Source of the DNA: a virus
Taxonomy: Duplodnaviria; Caudoviricetes
DNA length: 64,000 nucleotides
IMG/VR virus record: IMGVR_UViG_3300028833_000066
Direction: 5' to 3' (one strand)
Shown one piece after another: positions 34,905 through 50,709 of this stretch. Numbering within the stretch: the stretch's first letter is position 1; each line of letters begins with the position of its first letter. Under the pieces are notes generated by a model. It was not told the origin of the DNA. It was given only the letters and a program-made list of their open reading frames with translations, and searched no databases. The translations under genes and the position numbers were made by a program.

Positions 34905-35077
34905 TGTTTTGTCCTTTCTGGTGTTAAGGATTTTCCTTTCCTTTTTACAAGTAAATTATACCACAGATTAGAAAAAAGTCAAGAGTTTTTTGAGTTAGCG
35001 GCAACTAAATTTTATGCCGGCCAAGTTAGTCATAACTAACTTGCGGCAAAAAGAAAAGAGGGCCGAAGCCCTCTGCC

Positions 35078-35413
35078 TCACGCGAGGCGGTAGGTGTTGG
35101 GCTTGCCCTCAATCTTGACGATGCGATCAGCCCAGTTGTGGGTCAGACCGTACTGGATCTTACCCTTGGTGAAACCCTCAGGCAGATTAGCCTCAACCTG
35201 CTCGAAGATCTCCGCCACGGTCAGCGGGGCAGTCGTGAGGGCGAAGACACCGCGGACGATGTCCCACGCGGTCTCATAGCCCGCGTCCTTCTCGGCCTTG
35301 GCGACTGCACCCTTATTCAGTTCGGCTTCGAGTTCGGTCTTGATTTCGTCAATATTGGTCACGGTCTCACCATTGAGGAAGGAAACGAGAGACTTGATGG
35401 TGGCAATACGCAT
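35078..35413 (-). CDS. Winged-HTH-like early protein, paralog A1
   Basis: LTVAEIFE..FTKGKIQYGLTHNWADRIVKIEGKPNTY. Confidence 0.75.
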   Translation of the reverse strand: MRIATIKSLVSFLNGETVTNIDEIKTELEAELNKGAVAKAEKDAGYETAWDIVRGVFALTTAPLTVAEIFEQVEANLPEGFTKGKIQYGLTHNWADRIVKIEGKPNTYRLA

Positions 35414-35620
35414 AGTAGATACCCTTTCTGGTTTTTGAGACTGTCCTTGTCTTTTCATTTATATTCTACCACATTTCGTGGAGAATGTCAAGCATTTTTT
35501 AGGAAGTTGCGGAAGGTTTAACAGTCCCAATTACGCATTACCGCCCAACTAATGCCACCGCTTACATCCTTATTATAGCACAGGATTTGCTGTTTGTCAA
35601 GGGCTTTTTGAAGATTTTTT

Positions 35621-35775
35621 GTTTCAAGGTTTGCTACTTGTGGGCTCGAACTACTCTTACGCCATTTCCAATTACCAACCGAAGGAGTAGCAGAGAGAGG
35701 AGAACCAAGTTGAACGGTATTGTAGGTTTGACTGGGCGTCACCATCACCAGATGGAGCACTCTCTCCCTTGGAAC
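35621..35775 (-). ncRNA. Candidate small RNA with paired ends
   Basis: Promoter 35782-35809; 5' GUUCCAAGG pairs with 3' CCUUGAAAC; no convincing ORF. Confidence 0.4.
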
Positions 35776-35884
35776 AATTATATTATATCATAATTTGCCA
35801 GAAAGTCAATTACAAAAGTGTTAAGATTTTATTACAATTATATTAACAGGCCGGCTCAGTTAGATACAACTAACATAAGAGCAA

Positions 35885-35991
35885 AGAGAAGGGGAGGAAT
35901 CGAACCTCCCTTGGTTTACCACAACCTACGGCGAATCGAACGCCCTACGACACCTTTCGGGTATCTGCTGTTACCAGTGAGCCACTTCTCT
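35885..35991 (-). ncRNA. tRNA-like RNA with acceptor stem, D-like arm and two T-loops, but no canonical anticodon arm
   Basis: AGAGAAG/CTTCTCT stem; TGGCTCACTGGTAACAGC; GGCG-TTCGATT-CGCC; GGGAGG-TTCGATT-CCTCCC; promoter at 36150-36177. Confidence 0.65.
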
Positions 35992-36238
35992 TTTAATTGT
36001 GAAGAATTTTGGCTGTCCCTCGGGTGCCTTGTATCATTCTTCACAGTTCCGTATAGGGACTTGCAAGTGAGGTTGTCTGTGAGGATGCCTTACCCCGAAT
36101 GACTTATCAGGGGCCTCGTTCCGTTTTCCTCTCCCCTTGGAACAATTACATTATACCGCAATTTTGAGAATTGTCAAGTGGTTTTGAAAAAAAAGATTGC
36201 TAAGTTTTTAACAACCCGTGACCGGCAAAAAAGTTAGA

Positions 36239-36454
36239 TTACTCTAACTCTTCTTCTTCCTCTTTATAATATTTTTGATTGTCCTCAAAGCACTCTTTTG
36301 CGAAAAAGCAAATACCATGATGGTTGAGATAACAATGGGCACAATGATGATTATTTTGGATACATTTAGCAAGGTATTCATTTAATACTTTTATTGTTAA
36401 TTCCTCTTTATATATGGCTTCGATTTGTCGCTGTAACTGTTTTTCATTCATCAT
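36239..36454 (-). CDS. Small Cys/His-rich protein
   Basis: CAHCYLNHHGICFFAKEC. Confidence 0.55.
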   Translation of the reverse strand: MMNEKQLQRQIEAIYKEELTIKVLNEYLAKCIQNNHHCAHCYLNHHGICFFAKECFEDNQKYYKEEEEELE

Positions 36455-36728
36455 CACTATTATCCTCCATCGTATCTTCATATCCGTATACATCGCCTGC
36501 CCACCGAATTTCATCTTCTGCAAAATCCGTAGGGGCATCGGGGTCAACATCATCTGCGGCGAGCCAATCTTCCCAACTCTCCCAGAATGCACCCCAGTCA
36601 TCGCAATCTTCCATCGGGTCATCAATGTGACAAATACCCATCTGGTCGCAGTAGGGGCAATCGCCATAGGCATTCACGGGGCAGTAGGTATAGTCGCCAT
36701 TGTAGGTTCCCTTTTTCACATCACGCAT
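36444..36728 (-). CDS. Acidic Cys-rich protein
   Basis: CPVNAYGDCPYCD..CHIDDPMEDCDD; GGAGG RBS. Confidence 0.65.
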   Translation of the reverse strand: MRDVKKGTYNGDYTYCPVNAYGDCPYCDQMGICHIDDPMEDCDDWGAFWESWEDWLAADDVDPDAPTDFAEDEIRWAGDVYGYEDTMEDNSDDE

Positions 36729-36903
36729 TTTTCTTTTCCTCCATTTTCATTTTATGATTTCTCCAAATTTTAGCATAGAAGACTACTTTTTCAGGATATT
36801 GTATTTTTGAAAAACCTTCACAAACCTGATAGAAAGTATCAACATAGATAGCATGGCAATGCTTACAGAGAAACTTGATGATCGTATTTATAATGGTGGT
36901 CAT
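36721..36903 (-). CDS. Hypothetical early protein
   Basis: AAGGAGG RBS; promoter 36926-36954. Confidence 0.55.
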   Translation of the reverse strand: MTTIINTIIKFLCKHCHAIYVDTFYQVCEGFSKIQYPEKVVFYAKIWRNHKMKMEEKKNA

Positions 36904-37094
36904 TGTTCTTCCTCCTTTACGCTCTCATTATAGCATTGTTTATACCATTTGTCAAGAGTTTTTCTTGCGGTTTTACGAAGTTTTTTCTTTAAGCGACGAC
37001 GTGCGGGAGTGCTTTGATCTATCCATTGACGACACCCTGTATTCAAATCCCAAGCTGCAAGTTCATCATGATATTTATGCTCGTTCTTACGCAT
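36900..37094 (-). CDS. Basic hypothetical protein
   Basis: AAGGAGG RBS; promoter 37117-37146. Confidence 0.55.
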   Translation of the reverse strand: MRKNEHKYHDELAAWDLNTGCRQWIDQSTPARRRLKKKLRKTARKTLDKWYKQCYNESVKEEEQ

Positions 37095-37168
37095 TTATTA
37101 TCCCTCCTTACATGCCTATTATAGCATACATAGGAAAGTTAGTCAAGCCTAATTTTTTCGCCGGCACC

Positions 37169-37444
37169 TTAACGGCTATAATTAAGGATGTCACGACCTT
37201 CCTTAAAGTCATAGATAGAAATCATAGTGCAGTCTTTGTCATATAGATAGATAGCGGCGGCTTGAAGTAAAGCAATAATATCGTCACCGCATTCACTCTT
37301 ACCGTTCTGGCCGTATACCGTAATCATTTGATACCGATGCTTCTTATCACGAAGCTGCTGACGCAAAGAATCATTTTCAAGACGTAACTGGTCAAGTTCC
37401 TCTTCCAATTCGCTAATACGCAGGCTCATTTCAAATTCATCCAT
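37169..37444 (-). CDS. Coiled-coil early protein
   Basis: Own promoter and RBS. Confidence 0.65.
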   Translation of the reverse strand: MDEFEMSLRISELEEELDQLRLENDSLRQQLRDKKHRYQMITVYGQNGKSECGDDIIALLQAAAIYLYDKDCTMISIYDFKEGRDILNYSR

Positions 37445-37542
37445 CGTGATTCCTCCTTAGTTATTTCTTCTTACAGTTTGATTATATCATAAAGTAGACA
37501 GTTAGTCAAGACTAATTTTCTTGCCGGCGGCAAATGGGAACA

Positions 37543-37746
37543 TTAGTTCCCATTCGCACGACTGACAGAAAGGTCTACCAGTTCATAAGAACGCTCAATA
37601 TCAAACCGACAGCCGCATTTATCACAACGACATGACCACCACTGTGCGGCACCATCCAGTCCGCTAAAATCATCACCGTAATCTTCAATGGTATAATCTT
37701 CCGAACCACACACGGGGCAAGCCTCTTTGTCAAAATTTTTACGCAT
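37543..37746 (-). CDS. Zinc-ribbon protein
   Basis: CPVC...CDKC. Confidence 0.65.
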   Translation of the reverse strand: MRKNFDKEACPVCGSEDYTIEDYGDDFSGLDGAAQWWSCRCDKCGCRFDIERSYELVDLSVSRANGN

Positions 37747-38131
37747 TTTCCTGTGCCTCCTTTTCCTTTTCCTTGGCTTCACGCTTAGCCTTGTCGCGGG
37801 CGATCTTCTCTTCCTTTGCCTTGACCTTTTCGGCTTTCTCAGCCTGCTTGGTGTTGTAAGCATTGATTTCGTTCTGCATCAGTTCGCGGGCAGTCATGTC
37901 TTCGCGTTCCTCTGCTACGATGACGCCTACGCGGCAATAGCGTTCGACGCCATTTTTATCGGTCAGAATGCAACCCCACTGTCTATCATTGATTCTGCGA
38001 TACTCTGCATTATCTGTCCAAAAGGCATTGGGTTTAACACCATTAACAGAAGCAGAGTCCAGGTCAAAAATTTCAGTGAAGATACGGTCACGGAGGTCAG
38101 CATCAACAACAGTCTTCGCAATCTTCGCCAT
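37739..38131 (-). CDS. Early protein with Lys/Ala/Glu-rich tail, paralog B1
   Basis: KAEKVKAKEEKIARDKAKR; similar to 44245-44619. Confidence 0.7.
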   Translation of the reverse strand: MAKIAKTVVDADLRDRIFTEIFDLDSASVNGVKPNAFWTDNAEYRRINDRQWGCILTDKNGVERYCRVGVIVAEEREDMTARELMQNEINAYNTKQAEKAEKVKAKEEKIARDKAKREAKEKEKEAQENA

Positions 38132-38435
38132 AGAGATTCTCCTTTCGGTTTGTAGGGTGTCCTTCCCTTGATTACAGTTAGATTATATCACACATTTTGA
38201 TTATTGTCAAGAGATTTTTCAGAAGTTTCTGAAAATTTTTGTGTCCTCTCCGCATAAGCCAACCCTCTGGGGTGCTTATGCACGTGCGTTTCTTTACCGC
38301 CCCACCGAAGATTTCTTCGGGATGGTCGTCACATCCTCTTGACATTATTGATTATACCTGATGCCAAGACTTTTGTCAAGTAGTTTGTGCGATTTTCTTT
38401 TGTTAAGTTTTTCACAAGCGGGGCCGGCATAATAG

Positions 38436-38888
38436 TTAGTTATGACTAAACAACTGTGCTTCAAAGTCACGGGCAAGTTTGCGGTGTTCATAGGTGGCAA
38501 GCCAATTAATAGCCCATTCAGTGGCTATATATTCAGAAGGAATGTCAAAGTATACACTGAAAGCCGCGTCACGCTTAATCTCGTCATCCTCAATCCAATC
38601 AATTTCTTTGCGGGTTGCCCAATGTCCTAACTCGTGGAGGATAGCAAGAGTAATGTCAGAGAAATTATTTGCGAGAGGACAACGATTGACAAAATCTTCA
38701 CGAAATGCAACGTCCTCTTCTTCGGGTATGTAATTAATAACAGAGGGCACAAGCAAACGCGGGTTTGGCTTGTTATTAATATCCATTCCCCAATTATTGC
38801 TCATTCGCTTGCGTGCGATTGTTACGCGGTCGCCAATGGCCTTGCTTGCAAACTCGCGGATTAATTGAATCTGCATCATCTTTATCAC
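38436..38888 (-). CDS. HExxH metallopeptidase-like protein
   Basis: ILHELGHW...E..A..WA. Confidence 0.65.
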   Translation of the reverse strand: MIKMMQIQLIREFASKAIGDRVTIARKRMSNNWGMDINNKPNPRLLVPSVINYIPEEEDVAFREDFVNRCPLANNFSDITLAILHELGHWATRKEIDWIEDDEIKRDAAFSVYFDIPSEYIATEWAINWLATYEHRKLARDFEAQLFSHN

Positions 38889-38953
38889 TCCTTACACCCG
38901 TATTATATCACGCACAATAGAGTTAGTCAAGTATAACTTTGCCGGCGGCTGTC

Positions 38954-39205
38954 TCAACCCGCATAGAGTTGAGACAGAAAGTAGAGGTTGAGGACAATGC
39001 TGGAAAAATGAAGCAAGAAGTCATTTACATGGCGGTTCTGGTTAGTAAAGTCCTTAAAGATACCAATAAGAGCAATGCCAAGGCCGAACCAAGCAGAGCC
39101 GAAACCGCAAGTGATGATGAGAACAACATTGAGAACCATGCCCGCAGCACGCAAGTCCTGCCATTCAAGTTTATAAGGGGCATAAAGATTAAAGAACTTA
39201 CGCAT
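38954..39205 (-). CDS. Small membrane protein
   Basis: Hydrophobic segments; own promoter. Confidence 0.6.
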   Translation of the reverse strand: MRKFFNLYAPYKLEWQDLRAAGMVLNVVLIITCGFGSAWFGLGIALIGIFKDFTNQNRHVNDFLLHFSSIVLNLYFLSQLYAG

Positions 39206-39519
39206 CTGGATTTCCCCTTCCCTTTTGTTCATCTATATTATATACTAATTTTTGATTTTTGTCAAGAGTCAATTTTGAAGTCCGCCACTCAATCGGGGCT
39301 ACCCGCTCATCCTCTTGCAGTGGGGTTCTCTTCCTCTTGACATCTTGATTATAGCATATAATGTGAGGTTAGTCAAGCCTAATTTTTATGCCGGCGACAG
39401 TTAGTTATGACTAAATAACTATTATGATAAAAAAAGAAAACCACCCCGAAGGGTGGCAAGGATGGGTTATTTCTCACCAATTACGCGACGCCAGAGATAG
39501 TGGCAACCTTGCGGGAGGC

Positions 39520-39852
39520 TTACGCCTTCCGATAGGCGTTGACCTTACCCTCAACCTTGACGACCTCGCCCGCCCACTGGTGGGTCAGAGCGTAGGACAG
39601 CTTGGACTTGGTGAAGTCCTCGGGAACCTCACCCTCGATGGCTTCCCACAGTTCAGCCACAGTCAGCGGAGCCTCAGTCAGCCCAAACTGAGCGAACACG
39701 ATGGGCTTAGCGGCTTCGTAGATTGCGGCCTTAGCAACCTTTACCGCATCGCCGCGATGAATTTCGCGGTTCAGTTCGTCCATAACCTCGGCGTTGTCGT
39801 AGTTGTAGTTGGTCAGAGCAGTGTAGATGGCATTCAGAGTAGCATTCTTCAT
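39520..39852 (-). CDS. Winged-HTH-like early protein, paralog A2
   Basis: LTVAELWE..FTKSKLSYALTHQWAGEVVKVEGKVNAY. Confidence 0.75.
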   Translation of the reverse strand: MKNATLNAIYTALTNYNYDNAEVMDELNREIHRGDAVKVAKAAIYEAAKPIVFAQFGLTEAPLTVAELWEAIEGEVPEDFTKSKLSYALTHQWAGEVVKVEGKVNAYRKA

Positions 39853-40334
39853 AGGGCAATTTCCTTTCTGGTTTTTAAGTGTTTTCCTTCACTTGATGTC
39901 TTTATTATATCATGGATTTGGGAGTTTGTCAAGGGGTTTCGCAAACTTTTTTCGCCCATTATGTTTGCTGGTGGCCAAATGTTTCTGTTTCCATGCGTTT
40001 TGTCTCTGTTGACTTTCGGCAACCACCTTGACTTGTCAGTGTGACTCCCTCACCTGACAATATTAATTATACTCTAATTTTGATTTTTGTCAAGCATTTT
40101 TTGAAAATTTCTTTGATAAATTTTTGACAATTGATGGTTATGTAGTCATAACTAACCGCCGCGCCGGCACGAAAAAAGGGTAATTAGATACCCTTCTTTA
40201 CAGAATCCTACACCAGAAAGCCGCGAGAAGAAGCCCCAAAAAGTAGTGAAGAATTATAGGTTTATCATCTTTGCGGCAAGCATTAGCGGTATATACTATC
40301 CAGACAAGAGTAAGCACGATGGCAATTGCAATTT

Positions 40335-40778
40335 TCATTTTATTACTCCTTTCAGTACGCGGATGATTTCGTTAGGGGTGAAAGCGCCATCGCCCCATGC
40401 CTTGCGGTTCGGTTCCTCATCATCGAATAGGATGCCACCACCGCAAGCGGTGCGCTTGTCAGTACCATAGCGGACAATCTTGATTTCGTCCCATTCCACA
40501 GAAGGCAGATGCTTATGAAGCCATACCATTTTAGCAAGGGCAATCTCGCCATTGTAGAGATCAGAGCCACCACGGGAAGTCCACGAGATGATACCGATTT
40601 CATAACCATTCGCCTGTACCCTGTGAAGAAGCCGAGCGAGATATGCCATATTCACAAGGGGCTTCGCGATGTCGTAGGGACGAGTATCTTCATTGATAAG
40701 ATTTTCAAGCCACCCTTCCACGCCGTAGAGGTCAGCAATCGTTCCGTCCATGTCGAACCAAATAGTCATTTCTGACAC
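40335..40778 (-). CDS. HAD-superfamily 5'(3')-nucleotidase-like protein, paralog C1
   Basis: IWFDMDGTIADLY...ILFDDE. Confidence 0.8.
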   Translation of the reverse strand: MSEMTIWFDMDGTIADLYGVEGWLENLINEDTRPYDIAKPLVNMAYLARLLHRVQANGYEIGIISWTSRGGSDLYNGEIALAKMVWLHKHLPSVEWDEIKIVRYGTDKRTACGGGILFDDEEPNRKAWGDGAFTPNEIIRVLKGVIK

Positions 40779-41059
40779 CTTCCTTTCTTGGTGTAATTAT
40801 ATTATACTCTATTTTTAGATTTTGTCAAGGGGTTTTAAGAAAGAATTTTGATTACGCATCTTTCTTCTTTCCGAACGTGGGCAATTTGATAAAGCCAAAT
40901 GCGAATAATTTGACTCAATTTCAGTTCGCGGATTGTCTGCTGTCCTTTGCAATTACGGAGATAAACTTTCATTCTTGGCACCTTCCTTTCATCCTTATTA
41001 TATCATATTGGTAGTAGTTAGTCAAGCCTAACTTTTCTGCCGGCGCCGAGGCGGCAGGC

Positions 41060-41776
41060 TCAAAGAGCCCACCGCTGTTCGATGTCATCGGGTTCAAGTT
41101 CTGCTTCGCGTTCCATTGCCTTGTGCATCCGCACGCACGCCGCGAAAATTTGTGCTTCAATCTGTACATCTTCAAGACCAGTGTGTGATTCAGTGAAGTT
41201 ATTGTCGCCAGTGAGGAATCGCCACAGAATTTCGGCGGTCTTGCGAACCTGCGGGACCTTATGCTTGGTCATATAACCATTTTCCTTGCAGAAAGCCACA
41301 TAATCAGCACGCTTGCAAATGGTATCCGTGGCCATCTTCATAGTGTCCCACACAGGCAAACCATAGGGGAAGAAGTACCGCCGCTTGCTCTTGGTCTGAT
41401 ACCGCATAGTGGTGTTCATTGTCCGCACATCAAACCGTGCATTGTGGGCAAGGATAGCCTTAACTTTGTAGTCTTCACAATCTTGCCGAAGCTGACGCCA
41501 AATGCCCCAAGTGTTGCGGACAATACGCTTGCCCTCGCGGATGTCCTGCTTGTACTGCGGGATTTTATCAGCAAAGAATGCTTCATTCATAGCCTGCGGC
41601 ATTTCGTAGAACACATCGCTATTCACGAACGAACGTTCGCAATATACCTTTCCTTCATTATCTACGATAGCCCAACCGCTATCATACACTTGACCGCTCG
41701 TGAGGTCAAGCTGACCCTTCTCATCCTTGGGAGTGTTGCAAGTCTCGCCATCAAACACAAGATACAGTTCCTTCAT
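41060..41776 (-). CDS. DEDDh 3'-5' exonuclease, paralog D1
   Basis: FDGET; AHNARFD; HTGLED. Confidence 0.8.
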   Translation of the reverse strand: MKELYLVFDGETCNTPKDEKGQLDLTSGQVYDSGWAIVDNEGKVYCERSFVNSDVFYEMPQAMNEAFFADKIPQYKQDIREGKRIVRNTWGIWRQLRQDCEDYKVKAILAHNARFDVRTMNTTMRYQTKSKRRYFFPYGLPVWDTMKMATDTICKRADYVAFCKENGYMTKHKVPQVRKTAEILWRFLTGDNNFTESHTGLEDVQIEAQIFAACVRMHKAMEREAELEPDDIEQRWAL

Positions 41777-41887
41777 TTCGTCTTACCCCTTTCATTCGGT
41801 ACAGTCTTATTATACATTAGGGGAGGGGCTTTGTCAAGAGTTTTTTCAAACTTTTTTCAAATTTTCGGCCGGCGAAAAATGCGAAAA

Positions 41888-42412
41888 TTACATTTCCGCA
41901 TCCCACCCGTAGTCAATCACTACGGGCTTGCCCTTGTAATAGCCCACATTGAACTCGTGGAGGTCGCAAATGTTCTCCGTGAGCCAGTCATATTCTTCAT
42001 CGGTCACATAATCGCCCCAATACCGCCATTCGTCACCAACGCCATTGATACGCGGCATAATGGACACGATGCGGCCACCGATCGCCATCACGGTAGTTTT
42101 GGCGAGCAGATAGGCATAACCCGCATCAACCGCACGGGCATAGACTTCCTGCTCGGTAGAGTTATCACCCGCACGGCAACCACCGAAATCATCAAGCCAA
42201 TCTTCCGCGGGAGTAAGGTCAAACTTGATGACATAATCTGCACGCATAATGGCAATACGGGACACGCCGTGAGCATAGTTAAGCGGACGACTATGGGTAG
42301 AATTGTAATCTTTAATAGCTTCTTCAAAATCAGCAAGGGTAGAGCATGCAGAGAACAGGCGGACGAGCAGAGCGGCGAATTTAGCGGCACGAACTTCGTA
42401 AGTGTTCTTCAT
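41888..42412 (-). CDS. Protein-kinase-like protein
   Basis: HGVSRIA..VIKFD..EQEVY...DLHEFNVG..VVIDYG. Confidence 0.7.
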   Translation of the reverse strand: MKNTYEVRAAKFAALLVRLFSACSTLADFEEAIKDYNSTHSRPLNYAHGVSRIAIMRADYVIKFDLTPAEDWLDDFGGCRAGDNSTEQEVYARAVDAGYAYLLAKTTVMAIGGRIVSIMPRINGVGDEWRYWGDYVTDEEYDWLTENICDLHEFNVGYYKGKPVVIDYGWDAEM

Positions 42413-42608
42413 CTTGATGTCCCCTTTCATTCGGTACATCTTGATTATACAATAACGGGGTACAAATGTCAAGGGGTTTTTGAAAAAAAGAGCAAGAAAT
42501 TTTCGTGCCGGCACGATTTTAAAATGCCGGCAGGTTAGTCATAACTAACTAACTATTATGAAAACAAAATAAAATGCCACCCGATAGGGGTGGCATTTCA
42601 GGTGAGCC

Positions 42609-42947
42609 TTACACCTTGAGGGTGTAGGTGTTCACCTTGCCAGTGGTCTTAATCACGCGGTCAGCCCACTGGTGACCGAGGGCATAGGTCAGCTTGCCCT
42701 TGGTGAAGTCAGAACCGACCTTGCCATCAAGGCTGTCAAAGATTTCGGCAACGGTGGCGCCTTCGGTCGCAGTAGCGAGAACCTCACGAACCGCGTTCCA
42801 GTTGTCCGCGTAAACCTGAGCCTTCGCGGCCTTTGCGGCATCACCGCGATGGAGTTCGGCGTTAACCTCAGCGAGAATGGCATCCTTGTTTTCGAAGTCA
42901 ACAGTGGACAGGACAGAAGCGATGGTGGACAGAGTGATGTTCTTCAT
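42609..42947 (-). CDS. Winged-HTH-like early protein, paralog A3
   Basis: ATVAEIFD..FTKGKLTYALGHQWADRVIK. Confidence 0.75.
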   Translation of the reverse strand: MKNITLSTIASVLSTVDFENKDAILAEVNAELHRGDAAKAAKAQVYADNWNAVREVLATATEGATVAEIFDSLDGKVGSDFTKGKLTYALGHQWADRVIKTTGKVNTYTLKV

Positions 42948-43206
42948 ATAGAACCTTCCTTTCTCGTTTGTTTACGCGGTGTCGTTCCGCAATCTTTTTT
43001 TTGTGTTCCTCTTGGAACATCTTTATTGTATCACACCTTGCGGTGTTTGTCAAGAGGTTTTTCAAACTTTTTTTGGGGTGGGCATCCTGCCCTCGGCTTG
43101 CTTTCCCCTCCTGACATATTCTATTATACTCAGATTTTAAATTGTGTCAAGCATTTAAGAGCAAAAAGATTGACAACTTTTTAACAAGCCGCCGGCATAA
43201 TTGGCG

Positions 43207-43359
43207 TCAGTCATCATACTGACGCCCTTTGTGCTTTGGGGGCTTCCGCCGTTTATCGGGGATAATTTTAGTCACAGGGGAAATGGAACCCCAGTCACCG
43301 CGGATAGAGCGGACAATTTCAAATTGGGATTTAACCTGAGCCTTACGCTTCATTTTCAT
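43207..43359 (-). CDS. Small basic protein (50 aa)
   Basis: AAGGAGG RBS; IRGDWGSISPVTKIIPDKRRK. Confidence 0.6.
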   Translation of the reverse strand: MKMKRKAQVKSQFEIVRSIRGDWGSISPVTKIIPDKRRKPPKHKGRQYDD

Positions 43360-43450
43360 TGCCTCCTTCTTGGTACATTTTGATTATATCATAGTCAAAG
43401 CATTTTGTCAAGAGGAAATTTTCGGCTGGCCAAAAAGGATGCGTAATTTT

Positions 43451-44104
43451 TTACGCATCCCAGTTGAGACAAGTGGCATAAATGCGGGCTTCAATTTCAG
43501 TATCGCCAACGCCAGTATGCTCCTCCTCAAAATCAGTATTTTGAGTAAGGAATCTCCAAATTGCTTCCGCTGTTGCTCGCGGTCTCGGGATGGCGTGGTT
43601 GGTCATCAAACCATTTTCTTTACAAAAGGTTATATATTCATCAGTTTTACAAATGGTATTTCGTGCCAGTTTCATGGTATCAATTACAGGCATATTGTAC
43701 GGGATGAAATAACGTTTTTTGCTTTTAGTTTGATAACGCATAGTAGCATTGAGTACTCGAATATCGAAAGACGCATTGTGAGCGATGATAGCTTCAACAT
43801 GCCACTTGTCGCACAAGTCTCGGAAAATCTTATACATTCCCCAACTATCCGTGACTGTATATTTTTTGTCCCAAATGTCCCGCCAATACTGCGGAATCTT
43901 ATCCGCAAAATAAGCATCTTTCATCGTCTCGGGCATAGAGATGAAAACATCACGATTGATCACGGGCACAACTTCAAGGGTCTTGCCCTCGTCATTAATG
44001 ACGCGGAAGCAAGCGTCATAAACCTGCCCATCATCTGAAAATAGTTTACCATTAATTTTATAAGTGTTTGCGGTTTCAGTGTCCACGACCATTTTATTGC
44101 CCAT
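43451..44104 (-). CDS. DEDDh 3'-5' exonuclease, paralog D2
   Basis: VDTET; AHNASFD; HTGVGD; shares TMRYQTKSK.RYF with D1. Confidence 0.8.
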   Translation of the reverse strand: MGNKMVVDTETANTYKINGKLFSDDGQVYDACFRVINDEGKTLEVVPVINRDVFISMPETMKDAYFADKIPQYWRDIWDKKYTVTDSWGMYKIFRDLCDKWHVEAIIAHNASFDIRVLNATMRYQTKSKKRYFIPYNMPVIDTMKLARNTICKTDEYITFCKENGLMTNHAIPRPRATAEAIWRFLTQNTDFEEEHTGVGDTEIEARIYATCLNWDA

Positions 44105-44244
44105 TTTAGAAAGCCTTTCTGGTTTGGGAGGTGTCCTTCCTCTTTTCAATGATGATTGTATCATATTTGTGCGAGTTTGTCAAGCCTAACTTTTTGGCCG
44201 GCGAGGTTAGTTATGACTAACTATTATATATAAAAAAATGGGGA

Positions 44245-44619
44245 TTACTCCCCATCCTTTTCGGCCTTCTTCGCGGCCTTTTCGGCACGCCGCTTGGCGT
44301 CAGCCGCGATCTTCGCGGCTTTCTTTTCCTCGGCGACCTTGTGCTTCTCGGCCTTTTCGGCACATTCGCGAGCGTAGCCATCCGCGGCGGCGTAGCCATC
44401 GTAGGCATTGTAGCCACCTTTACCGTTTCGAGTACCGCGAGGAGTAGAAACTTTTACCACAATCCACGCATCATCGCCCTCAGCGTCAACGCAAGGCAGG
44501 GCAATTTCATTGGAACTCACGCGGAGGACTTCTTCATCAGACAGAAGCCCGATGAACTTGTCAAGGAAGGAAGCACGGAGAGCGGATTCGATAGCAGTCT
44601 TAGTCATAGCCATAAGCAT
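44245..44619 (-). CDS. Early protein with Lys/Ala/Glu-rich tail, paralog B2
   Basis: KAEKHKVAEEKKAAKIAADAKRR. Confidence 0.7.
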   Translation of the reverse strand: MLMAMTKTAIESALRASFLDKFIGLLSDEEVLRVSSNEIALPCVDAEGDDAWIVVKVSTPRGTRNGKGGYNAYDGYAAADGYARECAEKAEKHKVAEEKKAAKIAADAKRRAEKAAKKAEKDGE

Positions 44620-44894
44620 TTCCTTTCTGGTTTTTAAGAGTTTCCTTCTCTTATGTCTTGATTATACTACAGAGTGGAGGTTTTGTCAAGAGGAATTTTT
44701 TATCATCGTGAGGAGGTGTCCCTCATCCTCTTGACAATTATTATTATACTCAAAATTTGATTTTTGTCAAGTATTTTTTTCTATGAATATTTATAAATTT
44801 TTTGTATAATTATGCACTGCCGGCACGAAAGTTAGTAATGACTAAATAACTATTGTATGCGTCAAAAGAAAAAAGACCCCGAAGGGTCTTTTAC

Positions 44895-45227
44895 TCACCG
44901 CAGGCGATACACATTACCGCCCTTGGTCTGCTCAACGCTCACAGCATCGTTCCAGTAGTGCAGGAGAGCATACTGTACCTTACCCTTGGTCATGCCATTG
45001 GGCAGAGTATCGCCACAGCTCTCCATCAGCTCCGACAGCGTAGCTCCATCAGTAGCCAGCTTCAGCTGTCCAAGCACCAGCTCGCGGGCCGATTCATACA
45101 GCTCCCGATTCGCAGCAGCCTTCTCGGCATTGCGATTCAGCTCCCGCATCAGCTCCGCACGGGCATCCGCCATCTCAGGCACGTTCTCAAGGAAGGAAAC
45201 AAGGGACTGCATAGTGGTCTTCTTCAT
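44895..45227 (-). CDS. Winged-HTH-like early protein, paralog A4
   Basis: ATLSELME..MTKGKVQYALLHYWND. Confidence 0.75.
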   Translation of the reverse strand: MKKTTMQSLVSFLENVPEMADARAELMRELNRNAEKAAANRELYESARELVLGQLKLATDGATLSELMESCGDTLPNGMTKGKVQYALLHYWNDAVSVEQTKGGNVYRLR

Positions 45228-45620
45228 AGTGATATCCTTTCTGGTTTTTAGGACTTTTCCTTGTCCTCTTTACATCTTGATTATACCACAGTTTTGAGGT
45301 CTTGTCAAGTGTTTTTTGAAACTTTTTTTTCGTTTGCGGCAAGATTTCCGTGGCCTTTGGAATCTTGGGAGAGCAGTCCATCTTGCCGCATTCTTTCGGG
45401 TGGTGCCCCTCTGTCCTCCCGACACTTTATATTATACTCGGATTTAGGTTTCTGTCAAGTGTTTTTCGCAAAAAGTTTTGTAAAGTTTTTAACAATGTTG
45501 TTAGTTAGTTATAGCTAACTCGGCCGCCGGCAAAAGAGTTAGTTTCAGCTAACTCTCGTAATTATGCCGGCAGAAAAGTTAGTCGCAGCTAACTTTGCCG
45601 ATAAAAAAACTGACAGCGGC

Positions 45621-46070
45621 TTACGCCACCGCCAGCCCCGCCAGCGTCTTTTCGTTGGTCAGTTCAGCTCCGTCAAACTTGATTTGGAGCTCCCGCCCGT
45701 TCAGGCTCAGGTCTCCGGCCACCCAGAAGGGAACGCTATCCTTGACCCAGTGCTGACCAGCCAGCTCGGTGATGATCCGCTCAAAGTTCTCGCCCTTGTT
45801 GTGGTGGGTGTCAGCTTCCAGATCCTCGGCCTTGCCGATGATCTTGGCCAGCCCCTTGGCAATCAGGGCCAGCTTGTCAGCTTTCGCGACGCGGATGCGA
45901 ATCTTGGCCATGCCGCCCCGCTTGCTGGAAGCGTGGTCCAGCTTCAGCACGGCGTCAGGCAGCTCGGGCAGCTCGGCGGCGAACAGTTCGCCGTGGTGGA
46001 CAAAGCCGAGGACATAAGCATCAGCGGCAGAATGGGCTTCGTAGGTGTTCAGCATCTCTTCGCGGGTCAT
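45621..46070 (-). CDS. Early protein, paralog E1 (possible PD-(D/E)XK-like fold)
   Basis: NKGENFE..PFWVAGDL..QIKFDGA; AGGGAGG RBS. Confidence 0.7.
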   Translation of the reverse strand: MTREEMLNTYEAHSAADAYVLGFVHHGELFAAELPELPDAVLKLDHASSKRGGMAKIRIRVAKADKLALIAKGLAKIIGKAEDLEADTHHNKGENFERIITELAGQHWVKDSVPFWVAGDLSLNGRELQIKFDGAELTNEKTLAGLAVA

Positions 46071-46595
46071 CGTGGTGGCCTCCCTTGCTTTCATCTTACA
46101 AGTAGATTATACAGTGCCGGACCGATTTTGTCAAGAGGTTTTTTGAAAAAAGTTATTACATTTCTGTTAAGATTTTATAGACTTTTCGTAATACTTTTGT
46201 AATAGTTTCGTGCTTTAACGTGTTAAAGCGGAGATACCTCGGCAGGTGAGGTATCCCACGGTGGAGGTACTTCGGCAGGTGAGGTATTGCCGGCAAAGTA
46301 GTTAGTGACAACTAATCTGGTTAGTCATAACTAACTCTTATAATACTTATTTAGTCATAACTAACTCCGCGAAAATAGTTAGTTAGTTATAACTAACTTA
46401 AAAAATCGCACCCTCGCCGTGGGTCCGACCGGTTCTCCGCTCCTCTGGTTATAGTATAGCACACTATGGAAAAATGTCAAGAGGTTTTCAAAAATTTTTT
46501 GAAAAAATTTTGCCGGCAAGATTTTGAAAAAAGTGCTTGACAAGTCCGGACAAGTATGTTATAATCAAGATGTAAAGAGAAGCAAGGAGGAAGAA

Positions 46596-46760
46596 ATGAT
46601 GAAGAGTTTCGAGGTTGAAATTAGCTGGGTAGAGGCTCATGGTTTCCGTTATGTGGTGAAGGATGGCAAGCTGTATTGGCAGACCGCGATTCAGACCGCG
46701 GAGATGGACGAGGATGGTCATATTGTATGGCATGAAAAAGAATATTTTAATCTTCTGTAA
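46596..46760 (+). CDS. Small early protein
   Basis: Promoter 46537-46565; AAGGAGG RBS. Confidence 0.65.
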   Translation: MMKSFEVEISWVEAHGFRYVVKDGKLYWQTAIQTAEMDEDGHIVWHEKEYFNLL

Positions 46761-46832
46761 AACCTCTTGACAAAACATTGACCGTCTGTTATAATCAAGA
46801 TGTACCAAAGAGATAGAAAGGAAGTAGGAACA

Positions 46833-47048
46833 ATGTACAAAACTACTTGGATTATCAGTGATGAAAGTGACGAGGGTATCTATCAGACAGAATTGACCTT
46901 GTATCATTTCGGAAAAACTCCCAAATTTCCCAGTTGGTACATGGAAGAAAATCACTCTTACGTGATTGAAATGGTTTGGAATTTCAAATTGATTGTTCGT
47001 CCTTCAATCTTCTTTAAGTGCCTGACCCATCAATACATTATCAAGTAA
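46833..47048 (+). CDS. Small early protein
   Basis: Promoter 46768-46795; RBS. Confidence 0.55.
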   Translation: MYKTTWIISDESDEGIYQTELTLYHFGKTPKFPSWYMEENHSYVIEMVWNFKLIVRPSIFFKCLTHQYIIK

Positions 47049-47124
47049 AAAAGTACTTGACAAATCCGGCAACCTGTGCTATACTTAGATCGTACCAAGG
47101 GAAGAACAAAAGGAGGATCACAAA

Positions 47125-47433
47125 ATGATCACCATGCGTCATCTGCTGACCCTGAAAGAAAACGACGGCATGACCCTGAAAAACGGCGAGATGATCACTT
47201 ATAAAAGCGGCTGGCAAGTAGCCACCGAAGGCGTGGAATGTGTAAGTCCGAAGGATGCCATGCGTGCGATTAAGCAGTATAACGGCACTTGCGGCGTGTG
47301 GTACGCTGGCGGTATCTACTACATTGACAAAAGCCACCGCGTGAGCACGAAACGTGAGGCCATGGAGATCGGCCGCAAGTGCAAGCAGATTTCCGTCCTG
47401 CGCTGGCATGATATGGGACTTGTCTACTGCTGA
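47125..47433 (+). CDS. Hypothetical early protein
   Basis: AAGGAGG RBS; own promoter. Confidence 0.75.
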   Translation: MITMRHLLTLKENDGMTLKNGEMITYKSGWQVATEGVECVSPKDAMRAIKQYNGTCGVWYAGGIYYIDKSHRVSTKREAMEIGRKCKQISVLRWHDMGLVYC

Positions 47434-47551
47434 GCAGTAGGCCGGAAAAATTTCTTTGAAAAAGTTTTGAAAAAGTGCTTGACAAATAATCGGGAATATG
47501 TTAATATATAGTCACCGGGAGGGACCCCGGAAGATAAAGGAGGAAACGAAA

Positions 47552-47719
47552 ATGACTCACATCAACAACCTGCCCCACACCTTCCGCGCTTGGATTGTCG
47601 CCCGTGAGGTTGATGGCGAGCTGTGGTTCTGGGGGTCTTGGGACTCCCGCGAGGCCGCGCAGGCCGCGGCGTGGGATATCGGCGGCGTGGTCGTGTCCCG
47701 CGACTGGGTGGAGGCCTGA
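47552..47719 (+). CDS. Small early protein, paralog F1
   Basis: WIVAREVDGELWFWGSW. Confidence 0.7.
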   Translation: MTHINNLPHTFRAWIVAREVDGELWFWGSWDSREAAQAAAWDIGGVVVSRDWVEA

Positions 47720-47913
47720 GCCTCCACCCCGGCACCGGATCCACCGGCGCCGTTTTTTATGCCGGCACAAAAGTTAGTTATGACTAACTGATTCGGATCG
47801 GCGGTTAGTTATAACTAACCGGAGTATGTTGCCCTGGCGCTCGGCTGAAAAAAGTTTTTAAAAAACTTTCAAAAACCTCTTGACAAACCCGCGAAAGTGT
47901 GGTAAGATTAAGA

Positions 47914-48022
47914 TGTACCAAGGGAAGAGAGAAGAAGAAAACAACCTCTCCCAAGCGCATAACTTGGTGAAGTAAAATCAAAACTCTCTACCAAACAGAC
48001 GAAACTTTCTTCCCTTGGTACA
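47914..48022 (+). ncRNA. Candidate sRNA closed by a perfect 15-bp terminal stem
   Basis: Promoter 47880-47908; TGTACCAAGGGAAGA...TCTTCCCTTGGTACA; no ORF. Confidence 0.55.
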
Positions 48023-48094
48023 CAAAAACCTCTTGACAAACCGGCCGCAATGCGCTATAATAAGACTGTAAAGAGAAGCAAGGAGGAAACACAA

Positions 48095-48271
48095 ATGCTG
48101 AACACCGAAGAAATCCGCAACGTCCCGACCTACGCCTACGGCCATCCCTATTGGGTGGTGCGCGAGGCGGACGGCGAGTACTGGTTCTATGGCGCGTATG
48201 ACACGCTCGCCCGCGCTCGCGAGGTGGCCGCGATGGTGGACGGCCTCCCCGTGGAGAACCCCGCGGCCTGA
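48095..48271 (+). CDS. Small early protein, paralog F2
   Basis: WVVREADGEYWFYGAY. Confidence 0.7.
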   Translation: MLNTEEIRNVPTYAYGHPYWVVREADGEYWFYGAYDTLARAREVAAMVDGLPVENPAA

Positions 48272-48529
48272 CCCGCCGCGGGTCTTTTTTTGCCCGGATC
48301 GCCGGCATGAAAAAAGTTTGGAAAAATTGCAAAAAGGGCTTGACAGACTTGACATATCATGCTATAATAAGGATGGTGGAGGAGGGCCCAACTATATAAG
48401 TTAGTCATAACTAACTAAATTGCCGGCGAAAAAGTTTGCGGAAAATGAAAAAACCTCTTGACAATTCCGGCAAGATATGCTAATATATAGTCACAGGGAG
48501 GAACCCTGGAAGATAAGGAGGAACGCAAG

Positions 48530-48691
48530 ATGCTGACTGAAAATTCTGGAAAGTACGAAATCCTTGGTTATCTCGTGGAAAATGGCTTTGACCTCGGTGA
48601 CATGACAATGGATGAATGGGCTACGGCCTACACCATGGAGGAACTGTGGGGCATCGTCCAGTATATGCTCGGGCAGGTGGAGGACTGGTAA
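48530..48691 (+). CDS. Small acidic early protein (53 aa)
   Basis: AAGGAGG RBS; promoter 48458-48485. Confidence 0.6.
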   Translation: MLTENSGKYEILGYLVENGFDLGDMTMDEWATAYTMEELWGIVQYMLGQVEDW

Positions 48692-48764
48692 GTCCTTCGC
48701 AATCTCGAAAAAAAGTACTTGACAAAATACACCTTATCCTGTATAATTAAGATGTAGAAAGGAA

Positions 48765-49202
48765 GTGCTCACAATGACGATCTGGTTCGACATGGATGGC
48801 ACAATCGCTGACCTGTATGGTGTGAACAACTGGCTTGACTATCTGCTTGCCCACGATGCTACACCTTACAAGGTTGCAAAGCCTCTTGTCAATATGAACG
48901 TGCTTGCTCGCAAGCTGAACGCTTTACGTAAGCAAGGTTACAAGGTTGGTATCATCTCTTGGCTGAGCAAAAACAGCACTGCCGAATATGACAACGCCGT
49001 GACCTTGGCAAAGCGTGCTTGGCTGGCTGAGCACTTGGCAAGCGTGGCCTTTGATGAGATCCGCATCGTCTCCTATGGTGTGAATAAATGGCAAGCCTGC
49101 GGTGAAGGAATCTTATTCGACGATGAAGAGAAAAACCGCAAGGATTGGAAAAACGACGCCTTTGAACCTTGCCACATTATGGAAGTCTTGAAGAGCCTGT
49201 GA
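48765..49202 (+). CDS. HAD-superfamily nucleotidase-like protein, paralog C2
   Basis: IWFDMDGTIADLYGV...ILFDDE. Confidence 0.8.
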   Translation: MLTMTIWFDMDGTIADLYGVNNWLDYLLAHDATPYKVAKPLVNMNVLARKLNALRKQGYKVGIISWLSKNSTAEYDNAVTLAKRAWLAEHLASVAFDEIRIVSYGVNKWQACGEGILFDDEEKNRKDWKNDAFEPCHIMEVLKSL

Positions 49203-49791
49203 CAAGGTTCTTTTTTTATAATAGTACGGTTAGTCATAACTAACTCGCTTGCCGGCATTAAAAAAGAGTAACCACTACATGGTTACTCTTTTGCCTTGTC
49301 ATTGGCAAGGGCAAGGGCAAACGCCTGCATGATGAAGCCGATCACAACACCTATAAGCCACCAATCACACCGAGACAGATAGCACATAAGCCCGCAAATA
49401 GTGCTGAGGAAGACGCCGAGATAGCCCATCATTTTAGCCCCTTCTTTCCTTTGGTTTCACCTATATTATATCAGAAATTTTGTAAAAGTCAAGTAATAAT
49501 TTTGTAATAGGTGGAGGATTCTGCTCCGAAAAGTCTACCGGCAAATAATAAGAAAAAAGGGCTTGACAAAATCGCCGGCATAATGTATAATAAAGATGCA
49601 CCGGAACGGAGAGACAGGGGAGAGTGAAGACATGAGTTAGTTATAACTAATTACCTTTTCGGCACTGGTGGAGGCTCAAAAAAAATTTTTGAAAAATGAA
49701 AAAGTGCTTGACAAGTCCGGCATTGTGTGCTATACTTTAATCACGGTGGAGGGAGACCGAAGCCGAATAGAAAGAAAAGGGGACTTCAAAA

Positions 49792-50010
49792 ATGACTATC
49801 CGCGAATACTTCGACACTATCTATGCCACCGAGGATTTTGAGGACGCCGCCGACTATGAGCGGACTATCTACCACTGCATGGAAGAGGACTTCGACGACT
49901 TCACTATGTGGGCAGTGGAAAACGGCATTGACCTGACCGCCACCACTGAAATCATGGGCGAAACCGTGCCCGTGTTGCTCGCGTGGGCGTGGGATATGTG
50001 CGAAGAGTGA
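49792..50010 (+). CDS. Highly acidic small early protein (possible DNA mimic)
   Basis: D/E-rich 72 aa; own promoter. Confidence 0.65.
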   Translation: MTIREYFDTIYATEDFEDAADYERTIYHCMEEDFDDFTMWAVENGIDLTATTEIMGETVPVLLAWAWDMCEE

Positions 50011-50256
50011 AAACCCTTCGCCTTTTCTTTTTTTGTAAAAAGTGCTTGACAAGTCTGCCGGTCTGTGCTATACTATCATCAGAGGAAGGGAAAACGCTTC
50101 GGACCAACGGCGGACCTGCCCATTTTTATTTTTGACTATCTTTGATCTTTGTGGACTATGGGCAAAAACTTTTTTCGTAAAAATGCAAAAAAGGGCTTGA
50201 CAAGTTTACCGGCAAGGTGTATAATCAGGGTGAAGATAAGGAAAGGGGACATCACC

Positions 50257-50709
50257 ATGATGAACACTCTGCTGACCGCCTACAACAAGCTGACTGCCGC
50301 CACCATCTACTTTATCGGCTTCGTCCTCTCCGGCACCGTCTACGGTGGCTATTTCACCGAAATTCCCACCGCCGCCCTGAAACTTGACCACGAAAGCACC
50401 GCCCGCGGCGGCGCGGCGAAAATCCGCATTCGCTTTAATAAGGACTTAAAGCTTGCCCTCAAGGCACAAGGCAAAGTCAAAGCCCTTGCCACCATCGAAG
50501 CACTTGCCGCCGACCCCCGTTATAACAAAGGCGACAACTTTGAGAAGCTGATTGCTGAACTGAACGGCATTCAGTGGGCGAAAAACTCTGACCCCTTTTG
50601 GGTCGCTGGAGACCTTGAAATCAACGGCGAACAGGTACAAGTCAAGTTTGACGGTGCGGAACTGGTGAATGAAAAATCCCTCCGCAAAGCCCTGACGGTT
50701 GCCGCCTGA
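50257..50709 (+). CDS. Early protein, paralog E2
   Basis: NKGDNFE..PFWVAGDL..QVKFDGA. Confidence 0.7.
   Translation: MMNTLLTAYNKLTAATIYFIGFVLSGTVYGGYFTEIPTAALKLDHESTARGGAAKIRIRFNKDLKLALKAQGKVKALATIEALAADPRYNKGDNFEKLIAELNGIQWAKNSDPFWVAGDLEINGEQVQVKFDGAELVNEKSLRKALTVAA

Follow-up and report, generated by a model that had tools for sequence, protein, structure and literature searches.

Gene-less promoters in the early region of an uncultivated rumen phage: tandem promoter pairs and a minority of conserved non-coding elements

Introduction

What do strong promoters produce when no gene follows them? The question arises repeatedly for a 180-kb uncultivated phage from sheep rumen, whose early-gene block holds a series of such promoters. 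The first-pass annotation of the window (the whole stretch of 64,000 nt of phage DNA analysed here) had listed twelve of them and read their products as an arsenal of small RNAs (CsrA or ribosome decoys, antisense or anti-defence RNAs) or as empty cassettes acting as RNA polymerase sinks; in the opposite case, tandem promoters would merely add 5′-UTRs to the mRNA of the gene that follows.

About 45 stereotyped cassettes make up the block between 32.6 and 51.4 kb. In each, an A-rich tract precedes a consensus sigma-70 promoter, which is followed by a purine-rich leader and a small gene and then by a terminator, the palindrome AGTTAG-N6-CTAACT and GCCGGC. The block would represent an early, host-takeover-type region depending on the host RNA polymerase. 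The takeover module of phage SPO1, in the available part of its description (PMC6873191), is likewise a cluster of early genes, most of them small, that are served by the host polymerase and whose promoters and ribosome sites are of the highly expressed type, and the early small-gene cluster found here is of the same type. Protein searches gave no match between the SPO1 takeover proteins and the window proteins. One window protein, exonuclease-like, has matches of about 32% identity in Enterococcus phages of the Herelleviridae. The palindrome and GCCGGC borders and the gene-less promoters are features of the present block that this part of the SPO1 account (PMC6873191) does not describe.

Materials and Methods

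Promoters were scored by the number of matches, out of 12, to TTGACA-N16-18-TATAAT; promoter use was judged from the consensus match only. The association with gene families was computed over 376 promoter-led genes, counting orphan upstream promoters (P1) at up to 250 nt. The RNA evidence consists of assembled rumen metatranscriptome contigs from two studies, which break at repeats and are no proof of single molecules, of transcript ends or of relative amounts; RNAs shorter than about 100 nt would escape standard libraries, and short species arising from processing or hairpin-less termination could go unseen.

Results

The promoter scan found 29 perfect 12/12 promoters within the 19-kb block at 33-52 kb, where about 0.007 would be expected at random by our own arithmetic, and 91 sites scoring at least 9/12 against 34 ± 6 in shuffled sequences. 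All twelve listed stretches proved real: each lies directly 3′ of a promoter scoring 11-12/12, and in each case another such promoter precedes any Shine-Dalgarno (SD)-led ORF. Two units outside that list, P47880 (+, 47915-48022) and P36177 (-), bring the total to fourteen (Table 1). The claim that the units hold no credible ORF stood as well, since SD-led ORFs of at least 10 aa were absent from every unit under the standard code and with TAG or TGA read as sense, with the exception of one GTG frame. This 80-aa frame (35760-35518) crosses promoter P35600, and its sole tblastn matches are translated promoter sequence. The Rfam covariance models gave no match at gathering score; at E values up to 5 they returned chance-level rows only, none of them in the orphan units.

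Table 1. Gene-less promoter units of the early block and associated genes.
Feature	Coordinates	Strand	Remarks
P45458 then P45308	45309..45458	-	P1 of pair upstream of 110-aa gene 45227-44895
P44770 then P44689	44690..44770	-	P1 of pair upstream of 122-aa gene
P43150 then P43053	43054..43150	-	P1 of pair upstream of 112-aa paralog 42947-42609
P40093 then P39932	39933..40093	-	P1 of pair upstream of 110-aa gene 39852-39520
P39376 then P39265	39266..39376	-	P1 with 57-nt stem-loop
P38379 then P38210	38211..38379	-	P1 upstream of 130-aa gene; structured spacer (z -2.6)
P35600 then P35491	35492..35600	-	P1 upstream of 111-aa paralog 35413-35078
P35809 and ORF-less 175 nt	35601..35809	-	Unstructured (z +0.25)
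P47880 then P48033	47880..48032	+	P1; outside the first list
P46480 and family A copy 1	46396..46480, element 46396-46449	-	Invariant block TCGGACC-N-ACGGCG
P50046 and family A copy 2	50046..50135, element 50078-50131	+	Inverted relative to copy 1
149-aa protein gene after family A	45621..46070	-	Paralog 50257-50709 (+)
P49563 and family B	49563..49707, element 49597-49635	+	Conserved 37-nt polypurine transcript
Near-empty cassette	48340..48457	+	P48340, about 20 nt, cassette-end palindrome, GCCGGC, next promoter
P36177 and tRNA-like non-coding RNA of about 260 nt	35880..36177	-	T-arm-like terminator 35910-35892
110-aa family gene	39520..39852	-	Winged-helix-like C-terminus
110-aa family paralogs	44895-45227, 42609-42947 (112 aa), 35078-35413 (111 aa)	-	Behind tandem promoters, like 39520..39852

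The shared 5′ starts GTCARGAGG and GTTCCAAG were present in the units. The reported purine and GGA richness was confirmed, mainly for the first 25 nt (72% purine); whole units contain 58% purine and 3.2 GGA per 100 nt, compared with 53% and 1.4 in coding sense strands and 74% and 6.4 in ordinary coding leaders. The composition of the 5′ ends matches that of ordinary coding leaders, which have an SD-like tract and in many cases a hairpin at the 5′ end; in the units this tract lies near the 5′ end with no start codon. CsrB/RsmZ sponges carry many GGA motifs, displayed in hairpin loops. The units share with them GGA motifs in a non-coding transcript, but each carries one to four, most of them located in the single-stranded 5′ tract, and they are less dense than in normal leaders (3.2 versus 6.4 per 100 nt); the features of CsrA or ribosome decoys are absent.

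Folding was better than in shuffled sequences in only three of twelve units, 40093- (z -3.0), 38379- (z -2.6) and 47880+ (z -5.9). The P40093 RNA carries its hairpin at the 5′ terminus, the two ends of the 109-nt P47880 RNA pair in an 18-bp stem, and in the 47-nt P44770-P44689 spacer a small hairpin masks the SD-like GAGG; in several P1 RNAs the SD-like tract is predicted to pair with a C-rich stretch downstream. Comparison of the 39376- stem-loop with L002, a relative 75-85% identical to the phage, showed that four of six differences form two compensatory pairs and that none breaks a pair. Together with the three structured spacers, these changes suggest something more than a passive spacer.

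In nine to ten units the promoter is followed on the same strand by a second one, both scoring 10-12/12, at a -35-to-(-35) distance of 81-209 bp and never below 81 bp. No terminator was found between P1 and P2 in the window's short spacers. Among 104 distinct orphan spacers from 39 related sources a terminator-like site occurred in 14, of which 11 were in spacers longer than 120 nt. L002 has orphan promoters at matching syntenic places, the 38379- unit being missing there, and its spacers are unrecognisable past the first 12 nt or so, indicating that tandem spacers diverge freely. The 116-nt P45458-P45308 spacer, which has no terminator, has positional homologs in L002 and in a second relative, L005; the 175-nt stretch behind P35809, sought in relatives, was not found there, and it is bridged by RNA contigs.

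An orphan P1 precedes 17 of 25 genes of the 110-aa family (including all four window paralogs, each with a P1-P2 pair), 8/10 of the 72-aa, 7/10 of the 122-aa and 14/37 of the 150-aa family. It is absent from the exonuclease genes (0/10) and from five other families (0/7 to 0/9), and accompanies 26 of 193 genes matching no window protein.

Transcription was followed on the metatranscriptome contigs. Contig ends tagged with Illumina adapter, at 40045 and 40039, fall within the P40093 transcript as predicted, 14-20 nt from its start; the contig ending at 40039 and another ending at 40045 extend through the second promoter P39932 to 39460-39463, just above the terminator stem of the 110-aa gene (39457-39440), and a separate contig end at 39891 is close to the P39932 start. 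A further contig (47934-48195) joins the P47880 RNA to the next gene (58 aa). These contigs bridge P1 and gene, a continuity of assembly that does not prove single molecules. The contigs also include natural variants. One contig of an RNA run omits the P35600 spacer (joint 35499 to 35564); another variant joins 39919 to 40085 with 4 letters between, fusing P1 and P2 into a single hybrid promoter with exact 17-bp spacing and no spacer left; and many other RNA-run joints connect promoter regions from different cassettes.

The remaining units differ. Family A was recovered as 31 distinct variants in about 30 related phages, every one immediately following a promoter and sharing an invariant 14-mer whose middle base is free, 13-24 nt from the transcript start, followed by a conserved TGC-NN-(A/T)T(T/C)TTTAAG; neither a conserved structure nor a reading frame was found in the family. 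In copy 1 the block is followed by TGC, a T-run and then four AGTTAG palindromes, and the T-run and weak hairpin downstream of this copy make partial termination possible; copy 2 lies ahead of P50197 and the paralogous 150-aa gene. A homolog of the 150-aa protein, 40-98% identical, is the next gene at at least 22 family A loci; its predicted fold matches nothing. A search for mimicry of CRISPR repeats found none, pairs of the 14-mer at array-like spacing turning up only in unrelated high-G+C tandem repeats. The family B transcript ends at the AGTTAG cassette-end palindrome, upstream of P49708 and an acidic 72-aa gene. In both families conservation of the core exceeds that of the neighbouring proteins. 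Only 36177- has a terminator of its own, family A having a T-run only; the P36177 RNA shows an adapter-tagged contig end at 36129 and the block's highest RNA contig depth.

Discussion

We consider it probable that the early region combines three kinds of gene-less promoter, namely P1s, conserved dead-end units and near-empty cassettes. The first kind would comprise about nine units, 45458, 44770, 43150, 40093, 39376, 38379 and 35600 on the minus strand and 47880 on the plus strand, to which 35809- probably also belongs. As no terminator separates P1 from P2, transcription from P1 would run on across P2 and yield an mRNA for the same gene with a longer leader, and we infer this read-through to be the main fate of the P1 RNA. 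The 81-209 bp spacing would leave room for two polymerases side by side, and the likely effect would be to double, approximately, the promoter dosage of certain early genes with very high expression. The P1 RNA would also bring a protected 5′ end of its own, an SD-like purine tract and/or a 5′ hairpin like those of ordinary leaders, which may benefit stability. For about nine of the fourteen units the evidence indicates the case opposed to the sRNA reading, that of mere tandem-promoter 5′-UTRs (no terminator, unconserved spacers, bridging contigs).

Tandem strong promoters are known from phage T7 (A1-A2-A3), from the early promoters of SPO1 and SP82 and from the P1-P2 of bacterial rrn operons. 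The likeness lies in two or more consensus promoters for the host sigma factor, in one orientation, about 80-200 bp apart, terminator-free and serving one gene, with the downstream promoter contained in the upstream transcript. Unlike those systems, the design recurs here about ten times in one 19-kb block, is tied to particular small-gene families across related phages, and gives each P1 its own SD-like tract at the 5′ end, in many cases together with a hairpin. In Bacillus, polypurine, SD-like 5′ stabilisers (those of the SP82 early leader, ermC and gsiB) protect downstream RNA via ribosome binding, according to the available part of PMC7509114, citing Hue, Cohen and Bechhofer 1995. The P1 RNAs resemble them in the SD-like purine tract near the 5′ end, sometimes with no start codon, but in several the tract is predicted to be paired, and a stabilising role would be by analogy.

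The second kind would be a few short dead-end units in which the sequence itself is conserved, family A (46480- and 50046+) and family B (49563+). These conserved non-coding elements imply that a minority of units may be functional RNAs or transcribed signals; most likely, they act in cis, as transcribed signals tied to the next gene rather than as trans-acting sRNAs. More tentatively, family A, and perhaps B, might represent a novel type of unstructured signal, about 55 nt long, coupled to a promoter and widespread in rumen phages. A conserved partner, which could be the adjacent 150-aa protein of unmatched fold or a host factor, would recognise its 14-mer in the RNA or in the DNA.

For family A only, another reading, which we hold as possible and short of an even chance, is a promoter-proximal signal acting on polymerase or DNA: a nut/boxA-like site, a recognition site of the 150-aa protein, or an R-loop-primed origin, in which the promoter would be followed by a G+C-rich block and then an A+T-rich unwinding stretch. 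The invariant 14-mer at variable distance, with no structure and no frame, agrees with this, as do the linkage to the 150-aa gene and the conserved core after the 14-mer, which we take to recall the boxA sequence CUCUUUAA. In phage lambda, pR′-6S RNA and nut/boxA combine a strong promoter with a short transcribed signal, which is conserved, and a stop region rich in T; family A shares this layout, and by analogy the next gene might encode the cognate factor. However, family A lacks a boxB-like hairpin and resembles boxA at 7/8 bases in some variants only, its T-rich part runs into the left arm of the palindrome that follows, no antiterminator homolog was identified, and with an unmatched fold DNA or RNA binding by the 150-aa protein is only putative. 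An origin would fit the genome-wide cumulative GC-skew minimum beside copy 1 and the outward-pointing copies, but gene orientation confounds the skew, and most related contigs place the element in a co-directional promoter array and not at a divergence point.

The third kind, one or two near-empty cassettes such as 48340+, would be left by module-shuffling recombination. The early suggestion of empty cassettes fits 48340+ and 49563+, which run straight into the cassette-end palindrome. Its extension to all units, as neutral debris of unequal recombination among repeated modules that would at most titrate RNA polymerase, appears unlikely. Freely evolving spacers, presence or absence between relatives (in L002 both 38379- and the whole of 36134-35460 are missing), contig joints between cassette promoter regions, the fused single promoter and the immediate cassette end behind P48340 speak in its favour; yet P1s are strongly tied to certain gene families across phages with proteins only 35-50% identical and absent from others, the spacing never falls below 81 bp, and the family A and B cores outdo neighbouring proteins in conservation.

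Slightly less likely still is an arsenal of discrete trans-acting sRNAs (decoy, antisense or anti-defence), released before the next promoter by termination or processing, for although the strong promoters, ORF-less units, three significantly structured units, two compensatory pairs in the 39376- spacer, conservation of families A and B and the 36177- RNA with its terminator and high contig depth could be so explained, nine units have no terminator, spacers are unconserved even in the 75-85% identical relative, contigs bridge P1 and gene, a spacer-less variant exists in nature, Rfam matches are absent, GGA motifs are less dense than in normal leaders and family A has no conserved structure. 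The original sRNA claim is unsupported for most units; conserved non-coding elements are genuine in the two family A units and in the family B unit.

Strong gene-less promoters in phage early regions need not mean sRNA genes: most of those found here belong to a conserved double-promoter design specific to gene families, which helps to annotate uncultivated phages and to read their expression hierarchy. The candidates deserving experiments are the invariant 14-mer, present in about 30 rumen phage variants, the linked protein of unmatched fold and the polypurine family B. If the proposed signal class is real, family A could control read-through, prime replication or regulate takeover genes.

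Strong promoters without a reading frame

The first-pass annotation had proposed about a dozen orphan promoters, i.e. strong promoters with no ORF before the next promoter, producing short purine- and GGA-rich RNAs that would act as an sRNA arsenal or represent empty cassettes. In a unit-by-unit map all 12 listed ORF-less stretches behind promoters were borne out: the next promoter lies 47–312 nt after the predicted start of each unit (named here by promoter position and strand) with no SD-led ORF between, and two further units, P47880 (plus strand) and P36177 (minus strand), answer the same description. No SD-led ORF of at least 10 aa was present in any unit, whether with the standard code or with either TAG or TGA taken as a sense codon, apart from one GTG frame of 80 aa in 35809-, which crosses the promoter P35600 and whose sole tblastn matches are translated promoter sequence. 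Rfam gave no match on any unit, at gathering score or at E up to 5, and ARAGORN found no tRNA and no tmRNA over the window. The shared 5′ words of the orphan transcripts are real. Their purine and GGA richness is at the level of ordinary leaders: the first 25 nt are 72% purine, and the overall GGA density is half that of coding leaders.

The interpretation is supported in part: a minority of the units have conserved non-coding elements, but the sRNA reading is not supported for the majority. Most units are best read as 5′-UTRs of tandem promoters, the outcome that the annotation itself had set against its proposal. The empty-cassette claim survives for 48340+, in which the cassette ends about 20 nt after the promoter and which is effectively an empty cassette.

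Organization of the early block

The genome holding the window is 179.6 kb long, circularly assembled, with a G+C content of 36.8%; the phage contig is present in sheep-gut DNA runs, and 30–68% of its sampled words occur in sheep-gut metatranscriptomes. Between 32.6 and 51.4 kb we counted 47 promoters scoring at least 11/12 against TTGACA-N16-18-TATAAT, 29 of them perfect, versus just six in the other 45 kb of the window, and early transcription diverges at about 46.5 kb. A megablast of the block against the phage GenBank collection gave no match. Since the block consists of small genes, most of them of unknown family, and its exonuclease-like protein is approximately 32% identical to proteins of Herelleviridae phage (Enterococcus), the block resembles an SPO1-type host-takeover early region, described as made of small genes whose promoters and ribosome sites are like those of highly expressed ones (PMC6873191).

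The cassettes follow a constant order: A-rich upstream tract, promoter, purine-rich leader, ORF, often a terminator, an AGTTAG-N6-CTAACT palindrome and GCCGGC. The palindromes have fixed arms and a variable centre and occur at cassette ends, almost only in the block (window 32900–51320), and 30 of the 47 GCCGGC sites of the genome are inside it, at cassette ends as well. The cassette-end palindrome suggests a site for a dimeric DNA-binding protein, or a hairpin. Related phages carry another palindrome at the same place, of 18 bp and built on GTTGTAC.

Coordinates of features in the window
Feature	Position	Strand	Remark
150-aa family gene	45621–46070	-	
150-aa family gene	50257–50709	+	
AGTTAG-N6-CTAACT palindrome	46381–46398		example
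AGTTAG-N6-CTAACT palindrome	45503–45594		example
AGTTAG-N6-CTAACT palindrome	48399–48416		example
Exonuclease-like paralogs, two copies	41060–41776 / 43451–44104		52% identity
NT5C-like nucleotidase paralogs, two copies	40335–40769 / 48774–49202		58% identity; opposite arms
Gene-free hub (palindromes, direct repeats)	46140–46400		at early-transcription divergence
tRNA-like RNA of P36177	35880–36143	-	260 nt, own terminator
Terminator stem of 110-aa gene behind P39932	39457–39440		

Probable tandem promoters of particular gene families

Seven independent lines (terminators, spacing, synteny, gene families, RNA contigs, a fused variant and other joints) argue that most units are tandem promoters, an upstream P1 and a downstream P2 feeding one gene, and not sRNA genes. 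The short spacers between P1 and P2 have no intrinsic terminator, and at their 3′ end comes the A-rich tract that lies upstream of the following promoter; across 39 related sources, a terminator-like site was found in 14 of 104 distinct orphan spacers, 11 of these 14 being longer than 120 nt. The distance from one -35 to the next is never below 81 bp, so that both promoters could be occupied simultaneously. In the syntenic relative L002 (75–85% nucleotide identity) orphan promoters stand at the same places, with spacers unrecognisable against those of the window beyond the first ~12 nt. Compared with the close relative L001, the window diverges by 0.7% within orphan segments, by 1.5% in the remaining intergenic DNA and by 4.3% in coding DNA; this divergence is patchy and not decisive.

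Among 376 promoter-led genes from 35 sources, scored for an orphan P1 at most 250 nt upstream, such a promoter precedes 17 of 25 genes of the 110-aa family, 8/10 of the 72-aa, 7/10 of the 122-aa and 14/37 of the 150-aa family, none of the 10 exonuclease genes, none in five other families, and 26 of the 193 genes matching no window protein. Orphan promoters are thus tied to particular gene families. In the window the double promoter stands before all four paralogs of the 110-aa family, whose predicted fold is of high confidence, with weak but consistent winged-helix matches; a single-sequence search of IMG/VR with the 110-aa protein gave no match, and its homologs come from loci reached by other routes.

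The RNA evidence consists not of reads but of assembled metatranscriptome contigs, which prove neither single molecules nor an abundance rank and miss short RNAs. Within these bounds, the contigs give direct hints in favor of the tandem-promoter reading. Ends tagged by Illumina adapter at 40045 and 40039, from two studies, fall 14–20 nt inside the predicted P40093 RNA, and the contig ended at 40039, along with another ending at 40045, spans P39932 and the whole 110-aa gene, down to 39460–39463, just above the terminator stem of the gene; a separate contig end at 39891 is near the P39932 start. The P47880 RNA is joined to the next gene by contig 47934–48195. In parts of the plus-strand units contig cover is low or absent, which is uninformative because short RNAs are not captured.

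Contigs from RNA runs also carry a joint that links 39919 and 40085 across four letters and makes a single hybrid promoter of the P40093 -35, an exact 17-bp spacer and the P39932 -10. This fused promoter is a natural variant lacking the 165-bp orphan unit. A second RNA-run joint skips the 35600- spacer, and many further ones link promoter regions of different cassettes, which fits frequent recombination among cassette repeats.

Units with conserved or structured sequence

Units 46480- and 50046+ are paralogs in inverted orientation and share a non-coding element, family A; behind each of them stand another promoter and then one of two paralogous genes, of 149 or 150 aa. Scanning IMG/VR and metagenome contigs by pattern yielded 31 distinct variants, all of them immediately downstream of a consensus promoter, with TCGGACC-N-ACGGCG invariant and followed by NNNN-TGC and a T-run. 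The element has exactly two copies in the genome, pointing outward. In at least 22 loci a gene for a 150-aa homolog comes next; these homologs are 40–98% identical, hence the element is far better conserved than the protein.

In the search for a CRISPR-repeat mimic, array-like matches to the element came only from unrelated high-G+C repeats, and a role as first promoter at the divergence point holds in the closest clade only, most relatives being arranged otherwise. No complement of family A was found elsewhere in the window. As a structured RNA or terminator the element fails, RNAalifold giving no covarying pair and a hairpin forming in some variants only. A peptide reading was rejected: 6 of the 31 variants have no ATG upstream of the block, and in the others the ATG falls in all three frames (12, 9 and 4); three four-fold-degenerate sites of the best frame are invariant. 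Since there is neither a conserved structure nor a consistent frame or start codon, and these degenerate sites do not vary, the constraint acts on the nucleotides themselves. Our best guess is that family A would work in cis as a transcribed signal, tied either to read-through or to the 150-aa gene; alternatively, it may be an R-loop origin or a site recognized by a protein. The cumulative GC-skew minimum of the genome falls at about 46.0 kb in window coordinates, at the gene-free hub where early transcription diverges and beside the first family A copy. This hub is a possible replication origin, but the skew signal is confounded with gene orientation.

The 150-aa protein itself is modeled at pLDDT 95.6, with no PDB fold match by Foldseek or VIA-align, no Pfam or PHROG family, and ESM Atlas matches to hypothetical viral clusters only. 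Invariant E97, E102, D120, Q129 and K131 lie on a predicted helix-strand-strand pattern that, on our reading, may recall a PD-(D/E)xK nuclease core.

Family B, in 49563+, is a 37-nt polypurine transcript ending at the cassette-end palindrome, ~92% conserved in the related sources L009 and L020, while the adjoining 72-aa protein is 54–74% identical to homologs in L007 and L009. In L009 (4050–4290) a pair of family B promoters face each other with only two palindromes separating them, so that the sequence there forms a long inverted repeat.

Six positions distinguish the 39376- spacer from its L002 homolog; two compensatory pairs account for four of them and no pair is broken, although the downstream genes differ between the two phages. 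It is the sole tandem spacer with evidence, from this comparison, of a selected structure. An IMG/VR scan with its 33-nt pattern returned zero matches although L002 holds it, and a shorter pattern matched 7 nt into the locus. The miss may be a storage-boundary effect, by which straddling matches would escape the scan.

The tRNA-like RNA of unit P36177 lies on the highest-depth RNA contigs of the block in three runs, and an adapter-tagged contig ends at 36129, 14 nt within its predicted transcript. Joints to 36056 place the first ~90 nt of this RNA before other promoters in variant phages.

Proposed working of the double promoters

New here are the gene-family-specific conservation of double promoters, the fused promoter that occurs as a natural variant, and two non-coding elements that are conserved and match nothing in Rfam. 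The P1 RNA has the same 5′ module as the coding leaders, an SD-like purine tract, often within a predicted 5′-terminal stem (e.g., 40093-, 47880+ with an 18-bp stem, 38379- and 44770-). According to a review, the downstream RNA is stabilized in Bacillus by SD-like tracts that are not productively translated, one of them from the SP82 early leader (PMC7509114, citing Hue et al., 1995). Stem-loops at the 5′ terminus likewise stabilize mRNA, although the example among the references of this review comes from E. coli. By analogy, the SD-like tract or the 5′ stem of the P1 RNA may stabilize the RNA downstream. Both P1 and P2 would fire, and the P1 RNA would read through P2, thereby enlarging the mRNA pool of a few heavily used early genes.
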